DNA of 64,000 nucleotides from an uncultured Clostridia bacterium (lineage in GTDB: Bacteria; Bacillota; Clostridia; Christensenellales; UBA1242), in contig CAOJFR010000002.1 of the NCBI GenBank assembly GCA_948434855.1, positions 21,195 through 85,194 on the forward strand, read 5' to 3'. This document shows positions 2,475-59,234 of the stretch, piece by piece. The number at the start of each line of letters is the position of its first letter. Position 1 is the stretch's first letter. The notes below the pieces were generated by a model. The model did no database searches and had not been told where the DNA came from. It saw nothing but the letters and a program-made list of their open reading frames with translations. The position numbers and the translations under genes are program-made.

Positions 2475-4250
2475 ATGGAAAGTTTAGCCTACTTTGACCC
2501 TTTGCTTTTTAAATGTCCAAAGGGTGCAATAACAAAAGGCACAGAAGTTCAGTTCAAAATAGAAGTAAACTTAGATTGTGTTTGCAATGAAGCATATTTA
2601 ATGCTTAGGGAAGATTCCAGCTCAGACTATAGCTACATTCCAATGGTCAGGGAAGAAAATTTCTTTTATGTCACGGTTCCGTTTAAGACGCATGGTCACT
2701 TTTGGTATAATTTTAAATTAAATTATAATGATTTTTCAAAATATTTAAGCAAAACATACAACACTTTTTCCGAGGTATCAGATCAAAAAGGTGAAGACTT
2801 TTTGCAGCTCGTAACAGAAAAAGAGTATGAGTGCACAAATTCGCTTCAGGGCGGAATAATCTATCAAATCATGGTTGATAGGTTCTGCAAGGTTGGAGAG
2901 GTTCAAACAAGAGAACCATTAATTTTAAGAGACGATTGGGGCGGTGCAATAAAAAAGAATACAGAAAACCCACTAATAATCAACCTAGAAGTATTTGGCG
3001 GAAACTTTGCTGGAGTAGAAAGCAAACTCAGCTTTTTAAAAGAGCTTGGTGTTACCACAATATATTTCAATCCAATCAGCATGGCAAATAGCAATCACAA
3101 ATATGACACAGCAGACTACAATCACGTAGACCCAATGTATGGTTCAGACCAAGACTTTGCAAATTTGGTTAAAAAGGCAAAAGAAAAAGGGATAAAAATT
3201 GTTTTAGATGGAGTATACAATCACACAGGCAGTGACAGTGTATATTTCAATAAAAATAAAAGGTTCCCAACTCTTGGTGCATACAACAGCAAAGAGTCAC
3301 GATACTATGATTGGTATGATTTTGATAATTATCCAAACAGCTATGGCAGTTGGTGGGGAATAGATACTCTTCCACATATTAAGCATAATAGCCAAGAGTT
3401 CCAAGATTTTATTGCTGGTGAAGGTGGCGTCATTGAAAAATATATGAAAATGGGCGTTGCGGGCTTCAGGCTAGATGTTGTTGATGAAATAACCGACGAG
3501 TTCACAAAAAAAATCTCAGAGCGAGTAAGGTCTTTTGGCAAAGACGCTCCAGTCATTGGCGAGGTTTGGGAAGACGCTTCAACAAAAACAAGCTATTCTG
3601 CCAGAAGAAAATATTTCACAGAAAACGAACTAAATTCAGTAATGAATTATCCGGTTAAAGAGTCAATAATAAATTATTTAAGAAGTAAAGAGCCCTATGA
3701 CTTGCATTCAACATTAAGGATGCTATTAAATAGTTATCCAAAAGTGGTGTTAGACAATCTCATGAATTTTTTAACAACTCATGATACGGGCAGAATTTTC
3801 TCAGAAATAAAGTCAATCACAAATGGAGATGCAGAGCTAGCATTAACCTATTTAAAAATTGCAACAATAATAATGTTCACACTCCCAGGGGTTCCTTCAA
3901 TATTTTATGGTGATGAATATGGAATGGAAAATAACGACGGCAGCTCAAGGGGCTGTTATGATTGGAAAAATTATAACAACGACATTTTTAAGTGGTATAA
4001 AAAGCTCACAAAAATAAGAAAACTTCCAGTGTTCAAAGATGGCGAACTTAACATTCTGTTTGCAAAAAACGGAAAATTTATTTTTGAAAGATATTCAAAA
4101 ACAGAGCACATAATAGTTCTAACAAACCTAAAAGAGTCAGAACTAGACATAAACTTAAACTCATCTTTTCTTTCTTTGTTAACCGATAAAAAGGTAGAAA
4201 GCTTTAAACTAAGGCAAAATGAAATAGAAATTTTATATGAAAAAAGGTAA
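2475..4250 (+). CDS. GH13 alpha-amylase-family glycosidase (neopullulanase/cyclomaltodextrinase-like)
   Basis: 591-aa ORF 19 nt after glgP; GH13 conserved regions GFRLDVVDE, GEVWED, FLTTHD. Confidence 0.85.
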   Translation: MESLAYFDPLLFKCPKGAITKGTEVQFKIEVNLDCVCNEAYLMLREDSSSDYSYIPMVREENFFYVTVPFKTHGHFWYNFKLNYNDFSKYLSKTYNTFSEVSDQKGEDFLQLVTEKEYECTNSLQGGIIYQIMVDRFCKVGEVQTREPLILRDDWGGAIKKNTENPLIINLEVFGGNFAGVESKLSFLKELGVTTIYFNPISMANSNHKYDTADYNHVDPMYGSDQDFANLVKKAKEKGIKIVLDGVYNHTGSDSVYFNKNKRFPTLGAYNSKESRYYDWYDFDNYPNSYGSWWGIDTLPHIKHNSQEFQDFIAGEGGVIEKYMKMGVAGFRLDVVDEITDEFTKKISERVRSFGKDAPVIGEVWEDASTKTSYSARRKYFTENELNSVMNYPVKESIINYLRSKEPYDLHSTLRMLLNSYPKVVLDNLMNFLTTHDTGRIFSEIKSITNGDAELALTYLKIATIIMFTLPGVPSIFYGDEYGMENNDGSSRGCYDWKNYNNDIFKWYKKLTKIRKLPVFKDGELNILFAKNGKFIFERYSKTEHIIVLTNLKESELDINLNSSFLSLLTDKKVESFKLRQNEIEILYEKR

Positions 4251-5993: not shown

Positions 5994-6539
5994 ATGAAGT
6001 TTTTAGTAGCAAGTGACATTCATGGCTCAGCAGAGGGAGCAAGGGCAATAGCAGAAAAATTTGTCAAAACAGGCGCAGATAAAATTATAATTTTAGGTGA
6101 TATATTATATCATGGACCAAGAAACGCCCTTCCAGAGACATATAATCCAATAGAAGTTGCACAAGTTTTGAATGAAATATCAAAAAATATTATTGCCATA
6201 AAAGGAAATTGTGATGCCGAAGTAGACCAAATGGTCTTAAATTTTTCTCTAAGCGATAGTGCCATAATAATGCTAAATAATAGAGAAGTTTTGCTCACAC
6301 ATGGTCAGCACATAAATCCAGAAAAACCTGCAAAAATAGCAGATGGAGCAGTGGTTTTATATGGTCATTTCCATAAAATAAGCAAAAATATAATAAATAA
6401 TGTGGTTTATATCAATGTTGGAAGCATAGCAATCCCAAAGGGAGAAACCGTAAAATGTTATTCGCTTTTAGATGAAAATGGCATAAATTTTTATGATTTA
6501 AATGACAACTTAATAAAAAGTTTTGACTTTAGTCTTTAG
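5994..6539 (+). CDS. yfcE: YfcE-type metallophosphoesterase
   Basis: 181-aa ORF; SDIHG, GDILYHGPRN, KGNCD, GHFH metallophosphoesterase motifs; RBS AAGGAGA. Confidence 0.8.
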   Translation: MKFLVASDIHGSAEGARAIAEKFVKTGADKIIILGDILYHGPRNALPETYNPIEVAQVLNEISKNIIAIKGNCDAEVDQMVLNFSLSDSAIIMLNNREVLLTHGQHINPEKPAKIADGAVVLYGHFHKISKNIINNVVYINVGSIAIPKGETVKCYSLLDENGINFYDLNDNLIKSFDFSL

Positions 6540-6569: not shown

Positions 6570-6599
6570 TTGAAATTTTTATAAGTGTTGTGATAATAT
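6570..6599 (+). promoter_or_regulatory. Sigma-A type promoter with extended -10
   Basis: TTGAAA at 6570-6575, then TGTGATAATAT (TGn + GATAAT/TAATAT) 16-18 nt downstream; directly precedes the riboswitch-like element. Confidence 0.6.
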
Positions 6600-6603
6600 A
6601 ATT

Positions 6604-6695
6604 GTAACCATAAAGAGCACATGAGGGACAGCCCCGTAGATTGTGCAGCAACCTGCTTAGTTTGTGCAAGGTGCTAAAGGCTGAACTATGGTAAC
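6604..6695 (+). promoter_or_regulatory. SAM-I (S-box)-like riboswitch aptamer lacking the P4 stem
   Basis: Closing helix ACCATA/TATGGT. Ordered core signatures are AAAGAGC, GCACA/TGTGC (P2a), GAGGGAC-AGCCCC, GTAGA (k-turn-like), AGCAACC and AAGGTGCTAAAGG. Confidence 0.6.
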
Positions 6696-6707
6696 ACACT
6701 CCCTTTA

Positions 6708-6734
6708 GCCCATCTGAAAAGATGGGCGTTTTTC
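6708..6734 (+). terminator. Riboswitch expression-platform terminator
   Basis: GCCCATC-TGAAAA-GATGGGC then GTTTTT. CCTTTAGC (6702-6709) can instead pair with GCTAAAGG (6673-6680) of the aptamer. Confidence 0.75.
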
Positions 6735-6747
6735 TTGCAAAAATTTC

Positions 6748-6775
6748 TTTACAAAGCTTAAAACGAATATATAAT
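6748..6775 (+). promoter_or_regulatory. Possible second promoter between riboswitch terminator and polymerase gene
   Basis: TTTACA, 16-nt spacer, TATAAT. Confidence 0.4.
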
Positions 6776-6811
6776 AAAAATAAGGCTTATAATGATTAAA
6801 AAAGGTTAGCT

Positions 6812-8140
6812 TTGGGTGAAAAGGTGAAAAGAGAAATAAATCAAAATGAAAAAGAAAACTTAAACTCTCCAGAAGAAGAAAAGAGGGTTTATTTTGTTAT
6901 AGACATGAAGTCTTTCTTTGCTTCAGTAGAGTGCAGTGAAAGGGGAATAGATCCATATAAGTCATGCTTGGTTGTTGCAGACCCAGCAAGGGGAACCGGC
7001 GGAATCTGCCTTGCAGTTTCACCAAAAATGAAGTCACTCGGCGTTCCAAACAGATGCAGGCTCTATGAAATTCCAAAGGAAATAGATTATATCATTGCAA
7101 AACCCCAAATGAAAAAATATATAGATTATGCTGCAGAAATTTATGGAATATATTTAAAATACATAGACAAAAAAGATATTCATGTATATTCAATAGATGA
7201 GTGTTTTATTGATGCAACAGACTATTTAAAATTATACAAGTTAAAAGCAAAAGAGTTTGCGATAAAGCTTATGAATGAAATTTATAGCAAACTACAAATT
7301 CCGTCATCTGCGGGCATTGGTTCCAATTTATATTTAGCAAAAATTGCGTTAGATATCACAGCAAAAAAATCGCCAGATCGCATAGGCTGGTTAACAGAAG
7401 CAAAATACAAAGAAACACTTTGGAACCATACTCCAATAACAGATTTTTGGCAAATTTCAGATGGCACAGCAAAAAGGCTAAGCAAGCTTGGCATTCACAA
7501 TATGGCAGACCTTGCTCATACTGACGAAAATTCAATTTACGAAGCCTTTGGTATAAATGCGGAGCTATTAATTGACCATGCTTGGGGAAGAGAGAGTTGC
7601 TTAATTTCAGATATAAAGTCATATAAGCAAAAATCAAAATCAATAGGAAATTCACAAATTCTCCCATGCAATTATGATTATAAAAGTGCAAAGCTTGTGC
7701 TGAGTGAAATGATACAAAATGGGTGCTACGAGCTTGCAAAATATCATTATGTCACCAGCGCAGTATACATCACTATTGGCTATGGCGACAGAGAGACCAA
7801 ATCATCAAAAGGCACTGCAAGGCTAGGCTCCACAACAAACCTCTATAGGTTAATTGCAAACTCCGCAGAAGACTTGTTTGAAAGAATAGCAAATAAGGGA
7901 AAAATGATAAGAAGAATAAGTTACGAGTTTCTAAATTTGCAAAATGAAGAAAAAGAGCAGTATGATTTTTTTACAGACCTTGCAGAGATAAAGAAAGAAA
8001 AAAAGTTAGTTAAAAGTGTAATAGACATTCAAAAAAAGTTTGGAAAAAATGCGGTGTTAAAGGGCATAGATTTGCAAAAAGATGCAACGCAAAAAGAAAG
8101 AAACAAATTAATAGGGGGTCATAATAGTGGAGAGAACTAA
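6812..8140 (+). CDS. Y-family (DinB/UmuC/ImpB-type) translesion DNA polymerase
   Basis: 442-aa ORF; N-terminal FVIDMKSFFASVE and SIDECFID catalytic-acid motifs. Start is ambiguous (TTG 6812 or GTG 6824; no in-frame ATG nearby). Confidence 0.85.
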   Translation: MGEKVKREINQNEKENLNSPEEEKRVYFVIDMKSFFASVECSERGIDPYKSCLVVADPARGTGGICLAVSPKMKSLGVPNRCRLYEIPKEIDYIIAKPQMKKYIDYAAEIYGIYLKYIDKKDIHVYSIDECFIDATDYLKLYKLKAKEFAIKLMNEIYSKLQIPSSAGIGSNLYLAKIALDITAKKSPDRIGWLTEAKYKETLWNHTPITDFWQISDGTAKRLSKLGIHNMADLAHTDENSIYEAFGINAELLIDHAWGRESCLISDIKSYKQKSKSIGNSQILPCNYDYKSAKLVLSEMIQNGCYELAKYHYVTSAVYITIGYGDRETKSSKGTARLGSTTNLYRLIANSAEDLFERIANKGKMIRRISYEFLNLQNEEKEQYDFFTDLAEIKKEKKLVKSVIDIQKKFGKNAVLKGIDLQKDATQKERNKLIGGHNSGEN

Positions 8141-8141
8141 A

Positions 8142-8453
8142 ATGCCCAGAGGCGACAGAGCAAAACAATTCATGCCCTTTGATGCACTAAAGGGTTTAAA
8201 GCAAGCCTTAAGAGAAAAAGAGATAGAACATGAAAGTGGCAATTTTCCAGAGCTTTCAGATGATGAAATAAAGCAAATTTCAGAAACATTGTTAAGGCTT
8301 TGCAGTGAAGATGAAGTTAAACTTTCATATTACGAAAATGGATATGTTTTAAACTTGCAGGGAAAGGCAAGTTTAAAAAAGAATGATAGACTAATAATTG
8401 TAAATGGCAAGCAAATAAAGCTAGACATGATAGTATTTATAGAAAAAGTTTAA
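8142..8453 (+). CDS. YolD-like protein (UmuD-analogous partner of Firmicute Y-family polymerases)
   Basis: ATG 2 nt after the polymerase stop, with RBS GGAGAG; N-terminal PRGDRAKQFMPFDAL resembles the YolD family; conserved pairing with a Y-family polymerase. Confidence 0.6.
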   Translation: MPRGDRAKQFMPFDALKGLKQALREKEIEHESGNFPELSDDEIKQISETLLRLCSEDEVKLSYYENGYVLNLQGKASLKKNDRLIIVNGKQIKLDMIVFIEKV

Positions 8454-8521
8454 AACAAGACAAATCATCGCAAAAACACCAAAGTTTCAAAAGTCTCATA
8501 ATATAGCACAAAAGGAGAATT

Positions 8522-9853
8522 ATGGGAGTATTTTTTGGAACAGATGGCTTAAGGGGCAAATTTAACGATGATTTGTCTTTTTCTATTATTTATAATTGTG
8601 GAAACGCTCTTGGCAGCGAAATTTTTGGTGCAAAAATTTTGGTTGGCAGAGACACAAGGTGTTCAGGCAGCTTGGTTTCTCTGGCGTTTGCGTGCGGAGC
8701 AATGAATGCTGGAAGCAACATTTGCGATATTGGCGTGTGCCCAACAGCAGGCATTGCCTATCTCACAAAAAAGCACCACTTTGACTTTGGTGTAGTGATA
8801 AGTGCCTCACACAATCCAGCAGAGTTTAATGGAATCAAAATTTTTGATAAATTCGGAAAAAAGATAGGTGATAAGATTGAAGAGCGATTAGAAAAAAAGT
8901 TTATGAAACAAACAACAGTTTCGTTTGATGAAGTCGGTCATTATGATTTTTACCCAAAACTTGTTCAGGATTACGAAAAGTTCTTATCAGATTTATTTGA
9001 TTTTTCGTTAAATGGAAAAAAGGTTGTTTTAGATTGCTCCAATGGTGCAAGCTACAAAATTGCCAAAAAGGTCTTTAAAGAAAAGGGCGCAAAATTATAT
9101 ATGATAGGTGCAAATCCAAGCGGACTAAACATCAATCGTGGGTGTGGTGCACTTCACACTGAAAAACTTCAAGAAATGGTAAAAAAGCAGGGCGCAGATT
9201 TTGGCTTTGCATTTGATGGCGACAGTGACAGACTGATTGCTGTTGATGAATGTGGAAAAATAATCACAGGCGACGAGCTAGTTTATGTTTTTGCCATGCA
9301 TTATAAATCTCATGGAAAATTGCTTTCACCAACGGTTGTTGGAACAAGGCACACAAACATGGGTGTTGAAAAGGCCCTAAAGGCTCAGGGAATAGAGCTA
9401 ATCAGAACCGATATTGGCGACAAATATGTCAATAGCATGCTGGTTGAAAAAGATTTGCTAATCGGTGGTGAGCAATCTGGTCATGTAATTGTAAGGGATT
9501 TGCTTTCAACTGGCGACGGAATTTTAAATGCACTGCTTCTTTCTTCAATCATAACAGAAAAAAATGTAAAGCTTTCCGAGCTAACAAACATAAGGCTCAG
9601 TGTTCAAACAAACATAAACATAGAAGTAAAAGATAAGCTCAGGGTAATAAATAGTGAAAAACTATCATTGCTCACGGCAGAGTGTGAAAAAAAACTAAGT
9701 GACGGCAGAGTCATGATTAGGGTATCAGGAACCGAGCCATACATAAGAATAATGGTTGAATCACTAAATCAAGAGGTTTCAAAAAAGGTTGCAAATGAAA
9801 TTGCCGAGTGTGTAAGGCAAATAGACAAAGAAGAAAATCAATGTGCGGAATAG
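8522..9853 (+). CDS. glmM: Phosphoglucosamine mutase
   Basis: 443-aa ORF; phosphoserine loop SASHNPAEFNGIK; FDGDSDR metal-binding loop. Confidence 0.93.
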   Translation: MGVFFGTDGLRGKFNDDLSFSIIYNCGNALGSEIFGAKILVGRDTRCSGSLVSLAFACGAMNAGSNICDIGVCPTAGIAYLTKKHHFDFGVVISASHNPAEFNGIKIFDKFGKKIGDKIEERLEKKFMKQTTVSFDEVGHYDFYPKLVQDYEKFLSDLFDFSLNGKKVVLDCSNGASYKIAKKVFKEKGAKLYMIGANPSGLNINRGCGALHTEKLQEMVKKQGADFGFAFDGDSDRLIAVDECGKIITGDELVYVFAMHYKSHGKLLSPTVVGTRHTNMGVEKALKAQGIELIRTDIGDKYVNSMLVEKDLLIGGEQSGHVIVRDLLSTGDGILNALLLSSIITEKNVKLSELTNIRLSVQTNINIEVKDKLRVINSEKLSLLTAECEKKLSDGRVMIRVSGTEPYIRIMVESLNQEVSKKVANEIAECVRQIDKEENQCAE

Positions 9854-59145: not shown

Positions 59146-59234
59146 TGGCGGAGAGAGCGGGATTCGAACCCGCGCTACATTGCTGTACTACACCCTTAGC
59201 AGGGGCGCCTCTTCGGCCTCTTGAGTATCTCTCC
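59146..59234 (-). tRNA. tRNA-Ser (anticodon GCU), CCA encoded
   Basis: Acceptor GGAGAGA/TCTCTCC, then G and CCA; anticodon loop CTGCTAA; long variable arm; T-arm GCGGG-TTCGAAT-CCCGC. Confidence 0.95.

Follow-up and report, generated by a model that had tools for sequence, protein, structure and literature searches.

A SAM-I-type riboswitch without P4 in a conserved position ahead of a Y-family DNA polymerase operon

SAM-I riboswitches are textbook regulators of sulfur and methionine metabolism, and metK is one of their classical targets. The related SAM-I/IV and SAM-IV riboswitches have no K-turn and carry a hairpin 3' of P1 as well as a second pseudoknot to the P3 loop. Small RNAs derived from riboswitches may also act in trans, for which SreA and SreB of Listeria are the precedent. 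A SAM-I element of C. acetobutylicum controls an antisense RNA (PMC2258182). With regard to P4, the Rfam SAM alignment includes natural sequences in which this helix is very short or lacking (PMC12714719, published in 2025), and the same paper, citing Trausch 2014 and Heppell 2011, states that SAM aptamers work without P4 and that affinity drops as P4 shortens. The pairing of a Y-family polymerase gene with a yolD gene is familiar from the LexA (SOS)-controlled uvrX-yolD operons. In the literature searched we found no link of SAM riboswitches to Y-family polymerases, translesion synthesis or YolD, and we know of no biochemical rationale that ties SAM to translesion synthesis.

Here we describe a SAM-I-type element ahead of such a gene pair. 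Coordinates refer to the window, i.e. the whole stretch of 64,000 nucleotides that was analysed, unless another locus (L001 and so on) is named. The unit and its closest neighbours are the following:

5994-6539: YfcE-type phosphodiesterase gene, upstream of the element, with its stop codon 30 nt before the element
6570-6599, + strand: promoter P1 from a consensus scan, with -35 TTGAAA at 6570-6575, a 16-nt spacer and the TG-extended -10 TGnGATAAT at 6589-6597
6605-6694, + strand: SAM-I-type aptamer without P4 (Rfam cmscan, RF00162)
6670-6711, + strand: predicted anti-terminator, GG.GCUAAAGG at 6670-6680 with CCUUUAGC.CC at 6702-6711
6695-6707: linker of 13 nt, nearly invariant
6708-6733, + strand: intrinsic terminator, stem GCCCAUCU/AGAUGGGC at 6708-6715/6720-6727, loop GAAA, U-run at 6729-6733
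6748-6775, + strand: promoter P2, TTTACA-16-TATAAT, past the terminator and ahead of the polymerase gene
6812-8140, + strand: Y-family DNA polymerase gene (Pfam IMS and IMS_C), start codon TTG at 6812 or GTG at 6824
8127-8453, + strand: YolD-like gene (Pfam YolD), overlapping the end of the polymerase gene

Identity and anatomy of the aptamer

The initial annotation had described the element as a SAM-I-like aptamer without P4 and had called for a search with the SAM-clan models of Rfam. In this search (cmscan), RF00162 (SAM-I) matched 6605-6694 on the + strand with 60.8 bits, well above the gathering score of 44.4, and with an E-value of 1.2e-11 for the 64-kb window. SAM-I was also the best model after clan competition, where it outscored the single overlapping clan member. 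The match is the sole riboswitch in the 64-kb window according to Rfam; the only other Rfam match above its gathering score is a tRNA-Ser (GCU) at 59146-59234 on the - strand. Our own model, R1, scores the aptamer of the window at 92.8 bits. The aptamer is made up of the following parts:

6607-6612/6687-6692: helix P1
6617-6621/6642-6646: helix P2a
6622-6624 (UGA) and 6636-6641 (GUAGAU): K-turn-like loop in P2
6625-6627/6633-6635: helix P2b
6647-6656/6666-6675: helix P3
6629-6632 with 6680-6683, + strand: pseudoknot of the P2b loop (CAGC) with J3/4 (GCUG)

The cmscan alignment shows that the upper-case consensus blocks of the model are all matched, i.e. AGAG in J1/2, GAGGGA, GCAACC, GGUGC-AA and the A-U/U-A pairs at the top of helix P1. 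These blocks presumably include the nucleotides that contact SAM, going by the solved SAM-I structure 2GIS. Both the K-turn in P2 and the pseudoknot between the P2 loop and J3/4 that belong to SAM-I are present, with the internal loop UGA / GUAGAU aligned to the K-turn consensus gGA / uaUGAA. The alignment spans model positions 1-108 and lacks only the P4 hairpin, of which all 17 positions are deleted. Between GGUGCUAA and the 3' strand of helix P1 we counted 9 nt (6678-6686), in good agreement with the gap of about 10 nt that had been noted as leaving no room for P4. P4 is absent from all orthologues as well, and the four-way junction of SAM-I is not found in any of them. The junction would thus be one of three helices in which the K-turn and the pseudoknot are kept, and the ligand is probably SAM.

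Covariation supports P1, P2 and P3. Five double-change pairs were found among eight orthologues (see below), of which P2a has three and the pseudoknot and the terminator one each. An alignment of 39 members of the P4-less subclass to which the element belongs (also below) is 90.5% paired and holds ten double-change pairs, with compensatory changes in P2, P2b and P3; the core of helix P1 is conserved in this set, with a single compensatory change at one pair. Compensatory pairs number 3-4 in P2a and 3 in distal P3, and overall pairing amounts to 90-96% compared to approximately 35% in slid controls.

The element shares with the SAM-I/S-box leaders (RF00162; e.g. yitJ of B. subtilis and metF of T. 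tengcongensis) the core blocks, the P1-P2-P3 arrangement, the K-turn and the pseudoknot and, as far as structure prediction can tell, a terminator/anti-terminator platform with OFF logic. In contrast to these leaders, it lacks P4, its predicted anti-terminator is taken from the 3' strand of P3 and J3/4 and not mainly from the 3' strand of helix P1, it does not precede a Met, Cys or SAM gene, and its terminator is followed by a separate promoter ahead of the next gene. SAM-I/IV and SAM-IV (Rfam clan CL00012) likewise combine a SAM-I-like binding core with the lack of P4 within the junction. An assignment to either of them was rejected, as the element has both the K-turn-like loop and the pseudoknot of SAM-I, and pairing between the P3 loop and the tail (UGUG/CACA) could amount to only 3-4 bp. 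Membership in the SAM-I class is evident from the Rfam score, and the joint occurrence of promoter, aptamer, terminator and second promoter is far beyond chance. Judged by its sequence and covariation, the element appears to be a genuine SAM-I-class riboswitch in a P4-less form that is known and widespread but little described.

Conservation of the unit at the head of the polymerase operon

That the next gene encodes a Y-family polymerase and that no Met, Cys or SAM gene is nearby had both been pointed out before. Our analysis bears this out: IMS and IMS_C domains are encoded at 6812-8140, and genes for Met, Cys or SAM are lacking within approximately 10 kb of the element, which is thus not sited upstream of genes for Met/Cys/SAM metabolism or transport, the position expected of SAM-I. 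The best NCBIfam matches of the polymerase are DNA polymerase IV models, every one of them below cut-off. The YolD-like gene is followed by glmM and then glmS, and other genes within approximately 10 kb encode a glycogen phosphorylase, an amylase, nucleotidyltransferases, a dUTPase-fold protein and spore germination proteins. Rfam gave no glmS ribozyme in the window. The yolD-glmM gap covers 8454-8521 and glmS overlaps the end of glmM (9808-9853). No terminator was found in the yolD-glmM gap, which holds a conserved block, CACCAAA (8477-8483) ... CATAATATA (8497-8505). This block may be a separate promoter or operator, in which case glmM would perhaps be under its own control.

A scan with the polymerase protein, using one genome per species, yielded 25 loci from uncultured Clostridia and Christensenellales-like MAGs. 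Among these the SAM element was present only in L001, the closest locus, which has 83% identity and the gene order of the window, and it was not found in the other 24, more distant loci (polymerase identity of 66% or less). A YolD-like ORF follows the polymerase gene in 16 of these 24 loci and also in L001. The gap in identity was filled with polymerase homologues of 68-75% identity from a large protein collection, together with their contigs. All loci that share the synteny of the window carry the element (L146, L147/L148, L149, L150/L151, L161 and L162). It scores 86-94 bits at these loci with a model built from the subclass, and the orthologues score 60-62 bits with RF00162. At polymerase-YolD loci in other contexts (L152-L154 and L160) the element is absent. 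A broad linkage between riboswitch and polymerase was rejected, given that polymerase-YolD occurs without the element across the 24 distant loci, L152-L154 and L160. At one locus without the SAM element, L004, an M-box (magnesium) riboswitch at 3573-3730 (-) divergently adjoins the polymerase homologue.

The eight lineages that carry the element (polymerase identity 70-83%) share one layout, namely promoter, aptamer, invariant linker, terminator, second promoter and an operon of (NUDIX)/Y-family polymerase/YolD. In L147 the upstream gene is a different one, and the riboswitch unit is unchanged and still heads the polymerase operon. L149 and L161 carry a NUDIX gene between promoter P2 and the polymerase gene, again with the riboswitch unit at the head of the operon. 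The NUDIX gene of L149 (3445-3983) is called as two ORFs of 66 and 120 aa with WDITA duplicated at the junction, and this split is a frameshift, an assembly error or a pseudogene; L161 has an intact NUDIX gene of 177 aa at the same place. The initial annotation had suggested that the element may be an orphan riboswitch-derived RNA or, alternatively, that it may couple SAM status to mutagenic repair. The orphan reading is weakened by the finding that the element lies directly ahead of the polymerase operon in every one of the eight syntenic lineages, including L147, L149 and L161.

The alignments show where selection has acted. In the six-way alignment, the aptamer has a mean pairwise identity of 91%, the terminator one of 88% and the linker of 13 nt one of 98%. 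In promoter P1, the -35 and the extended -10 are 90-91% identical and the spacer only 49%; in promoter P2, the hexamers are 100% and 94% identical and the spacer 36%. Other flanks are 36-57% identical, and the eight-way alignment gives the same pattern. Across the eight lineages, promoter P2 has TTTACA as its -35 (TTTGCA in L161) and TATAAT or TAAAAT 16-18 nt away. The structure of aptamer and terminator is 96% paired in the eight-way alignment compared to 31-40% with slid partners. The pseudoknot pair A6630-U6682 shows a compensatory change in L149 and L150, where it reads U-A, and the terminator pair U6713-A6722 of the window is C-G in six of the seven other lineages, the pair being broken in the aligned L162 row. 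Purifying selection on the unit is thus seen together with compensatory changes, a conserved architecture and a conserved linkage to the operon. By phylogenetic footprinting, the first promoter, the terminator and the second promoter are all where they had been placed initially, with hexamers and stems kept while spacers diverge, and footprint and compensation together mark, as judged from the alignments, a functional RNA with two real promoters and a real terminator.

One explanation that these data bear on directly is that the element is a recently acquired or decaying copy without function, derived for instance from a mobile element. Its confinement to one clade would fit such an origin, as would the abundance of the subclass in conjugative elements and beside variable islands (see below). 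However, the functional segments are far more conserved than the surrounding intergenic DNA, and five compensatory pairs have accumulated over eight lineages; we therefore disfavour this explanation and consider it highly improbable.

Compared to the uvrX-yolD operons, the clade of the window has a leader with the SAM riboswitch unit and promoter P2 and without a LexA box. LexA control of the operon was considered and rejected, as no Cheo box (GAAC-N4-GTTC) with one mismatch or less is present near 6730-6812. The search upstream of the operon in the window and of its counterpart in L001 gave no LexA box either, and no conserved palindrome is visible in the promoter P2 regions of the eight orthologues. 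Among 22 distant loci examined, three have a Cheo-type LexA box or a near-match: the box is perfect in L024 (CGAACATATGTTCG, at approximately 4009-4022) and near-matches occur in L017 and L018. An upstream ORF in L022 and L023 resembles, by eye, a UmuD/LexA-type S24 peptidase; the clade of the window has no such ORF.

Terminator, alternative pairing and proposed switching

The predicted start of promoter P1, at approximately 6604-6606, lies 1-3 nt ahead of helix P1, and the terminator scan gave a stem of 8 bp, 5 of them G-C. Promoter P2 matches the consensus at 11 of 12 positions and is the best site in the 2.7 kb scanned. From 6733 up to the polymerase and YolD genes the scan gave no terminator-like site. 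We also considered a leader peptide encoded past the terminator and ahead of the gene and rejected it, the only candidate being an ORF of 5 codons (ATG at 6793) that is not conserved in L001.

On the + strand between 6539 and 6708 the scan likewise gave no terminator-like site, and the element begins 30 nt past the stop codon of the phosphodiesterase gene (5994-6539). The unit might consequently serve as a conditional terminator or insulator that ends the phosphodiesterase transcripts and shields promoter P2 from upstream read-through. We regard this as quite improbable: all eight lineages have kept a promoter dedicated to the unit (promoter P1), the element has not changed in L147 where the upstream gene differs, and a plain terminator needs no conserved SAM aptamer with compensatory changes.

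The alternative pairing of GCUAAAGG with CCUUUAGC that the initial annotation had pointed out is present and longer than first noted, as it extends to 10 bp with one bulge. Its 5' side consists of the 3' strand of P3, J3/4 and the 3' side of the pseudoknot, and its 3' side of the linker and the first 4 nt of the terminator. When the transcript is truncated before the 3' strand of the terminator, as in the nascent RNA, this anti-terminator is the predicted MFE structure in five of six lineages and beats the ligand-free aptamer by 1.7-4.3 kcal/mol. For the full transcript, aptamer plus terminator is predicted to be favoured, with a margin of approximately 5-7 kcal/mol in the same five lineages and of 11 kcal/mol in L150. 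The anti-terminator takes away only 2-4 of the 8 terminator pairs, and forcing it on the complete transcript still leaves a hairpin of 6 bp. In L150 it is weakened by an A-to-U change and a linker insertion, neither of them compensated. The helix is invariant in the orthologue alignment, which holds no covariation for or against it. Since the anti-terminator uses the 3' strand of P3, J3/4 and the pseudoknot strand, an aptamer locked by SAM would exclude it. The OFF-switch logic proposed at the outset is thus supported by structure prediction only.

Based on these features we propose the following mechanism. Promoter P1 would transcribe the riboswitch. With SAM bound, helix P1, P3 and the pseudoknot would hold AGGUGCUAAAGG and leave the linker free, upon which the terminator at 6708-6727 would form and give an RNA of approximately 130 nt ending at about 6733. 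Without SAM, the linker CCUUUAGCCC would pair with GG.GCUAAAGG and capture the base of the terminator, and transcription would then pass over promoter P2, which would not depend on SAM, and enter the Y-family polymerase/YolD operon. When SAM is low, promoter P1 transcripts would in this manner be added to the basal level provided by promoter P2. We give somewhat better than an even chance to this reading, in which a SAM-dependent OFF terminator gates read-through from promoter P1 into the polymerase operon and has been selected for doing so. It is favoured because the unit has kept its place at the operon head despite replacement of the upstream gene (L147) and insertion of NUDIX (L149 and L161), because no terminator intervenes, and because the element is absent where polymerase-YolD sits elsewhere. 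Several points speak against it. A conserved promoter P2 is atypical for a cis-acting leader and implies that the operon does not need read-through; the anti-terminator is modest (2-4 of 8 pairs) and invariant, and it is weakened in L150; we know of no connection between SAM and translesion synthesis; and the eight lineages are close syntenic relatives, so that the adjacency could partly reflect inheritance.

The main rival is a reading in which the product is an independent, SAM-responsive small RNA of approximately 130 nt that works in trans, either through base pairing or by buffering SAM. Alternatively, the SAM-dependent balance between short and long RNA may be what acts, with the polymerase operon driven by promoter P2 only and the adjacency being mere synteny. 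The predicted promoter and strong terminator that would delimit such a discrete short RNA are conserved in all eight lineages, and another conserved promoter follows directly. Moreover, aptamer plus terminator is the global MFE structure, which means that termination may be the default, and the linker is 98% conserved, more than the anti-terminator alone needs. Precedents exist in SreA/SreB of Listeria and in the antisense-controlling SAM-I element of C. acetobutylicum (PMC2258182), and the locus resembles both in that the product of a SAM-I element could act beyond a simple downstream ORF. In contrast to these systems, read-through in the window enters an operon on the same strand, and we identified no trans target or antisense partner. 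The unit also tracks the polymerase operon and not the upstream gene, as seen in L147, keeps the head of the operon where NUDIX is present, and is missing wherever polymerase-YolD has another context. On balance we find an independent small RNA rather unlikely and retain gated read-through as the preferred reading.

The P4-less subclass elsewhere and the possible role of the locus

An exact-pattern scan of metagenome contigs with GCAACC-N10-30-GGUGCUAAAGGCUGAA gave at least 120 stretches, many of them on contigs whose names say human gut. Among the matches listed, 117 of 122 are P4-less SAM-I aptamers, representing 69 distinct sequences, and sampled members score 47-51 bits with RF00162, above the Rfam cut-off. 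The listed members (L026-L145; e.g. L032 10132-10228 and L030 4320-4416) have the nearly fixed sequence ACCAUAAAGAGUGCG..AGGGACAGCCCC..UGACCGCACAGCAACC..GGUGCUAAAGGCUGAAYGAUGGG. A viral collection had only 3 contigs with the subclass pattern. The loss of P4 is therefore not special to our locus, given that the subclass occurs on at least 120 metagenome contigs and that P4-less forms are described in PMC12714719. The variants of that paper resemble the subclass in that P4 is deleted and the remaining SAM-I core kept; the paper highlights a group from Actinomycetota, whereas the subclass found here belongs to low-GC gut Clostridia and their mobile elements and has a nearly fixed J3/4-pseudoknot segment, GGUGCUAAAGGCUGAA. 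What is new here is the unusual, conserved context ahead of a polymerase operon; P4 loss was already known.

Among the listed copies with a callable downstream ORF (at least 112), 66 precede a protein of approximately 112 aa, 19 one of approximately 90 aa, 6 metK and 21 other genes. The presence of metK downstream of some members supports SAM as the ligand of the subclass. The ~112-aa protein is unannotated, and the ~90-aa protein resembles it by eye. The family of the ~112-aa protein comprises 102 clusters, one of which has a D12 N6-adenine methyltransferase domain. The ~112-aa protein has no Pfam match and no fold match in the PDB (model pLDDT 82), and searches gave one marginal PHROG match of unknown function (E 0.007) and weak matches to uncharacterised phage proteins.

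In L155 (7839-8339), L156 and L157, the riboswitch and the ~112-aa gene lie within a conjugative element of Firmicutes, together with genes for a relaxase, MobC, ArdC-N, a topoisomerase, CD1107-like, NlpC/P60, VirB4-like TraG, PrgI and TrbL proteins. Two direct units of riboswitch and small gene flank a type I restriction-modification island (hsdM, hsdS, hsdR) in L119 (4434-4925 and 12654-13151), and two units in L083 (1318-1821 and 5257-5760) bracket an island in which we named, by eye, a GNAT-like acetyltransferase and an ATPase-like ORF of 502 aa. A box CUUU(A/G)UG follows the terminator, 47-62 nt past the aptamer, in 40 of 62 distinct leaders listed (L026-L145), compared to a background of 3%. 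It often reads CUCUUUAUGG, the complement of the 5' end of the aptamer (CCAUAAAGAG), and can also pair with the RBS or the start codon, which suggests that the box may provide a second, long-range layer of control. The clade of the window has at the same offset (window 6747-6754) CUUUACAA, the -35 of promoter P2.

The locus has thus led to a large and compact (approximately 88 nt) subclass of P4-less SAM-I riboswitches on gut mobile elements, mostly ahead of an uncharacterised protein family, which may be useful as a minimal natural SAM sensor. It also illustrates that automatic annotations as 'SAM riboswitch' hide regulons that are not metabolic. For the organisms themselves, we tentatively suggest, as a possible though doubtful reading, that a damage-tolerance module (NUDIX, Y-family polymerase and YolD) receives additional expression under the control of methyl-donor status, and not of LexA, in this clade of gut Clostridia that form spores; by contrast, relatives of the carrier organisms include a few such operons with LexA boxes. 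If this is true, scarcity of SAM would lead to read-through from the riboswitch promoter and to more error-prone polymerase; a metabolite sensor would in that case drive stress-induced mutagenesis or help the cell to tolerate damage that arises when DNA methylation fails. The occurrence of the subclass on conjugative elements and near type I restriction-modification genes would then fit a wider link between SAM sensing and DNA modification or DNA damage. A SAM-I riboswitch maintained by selection ahead of a translesion polymerase operon would tie methyl-donor supply to mutagenic DNA repair.
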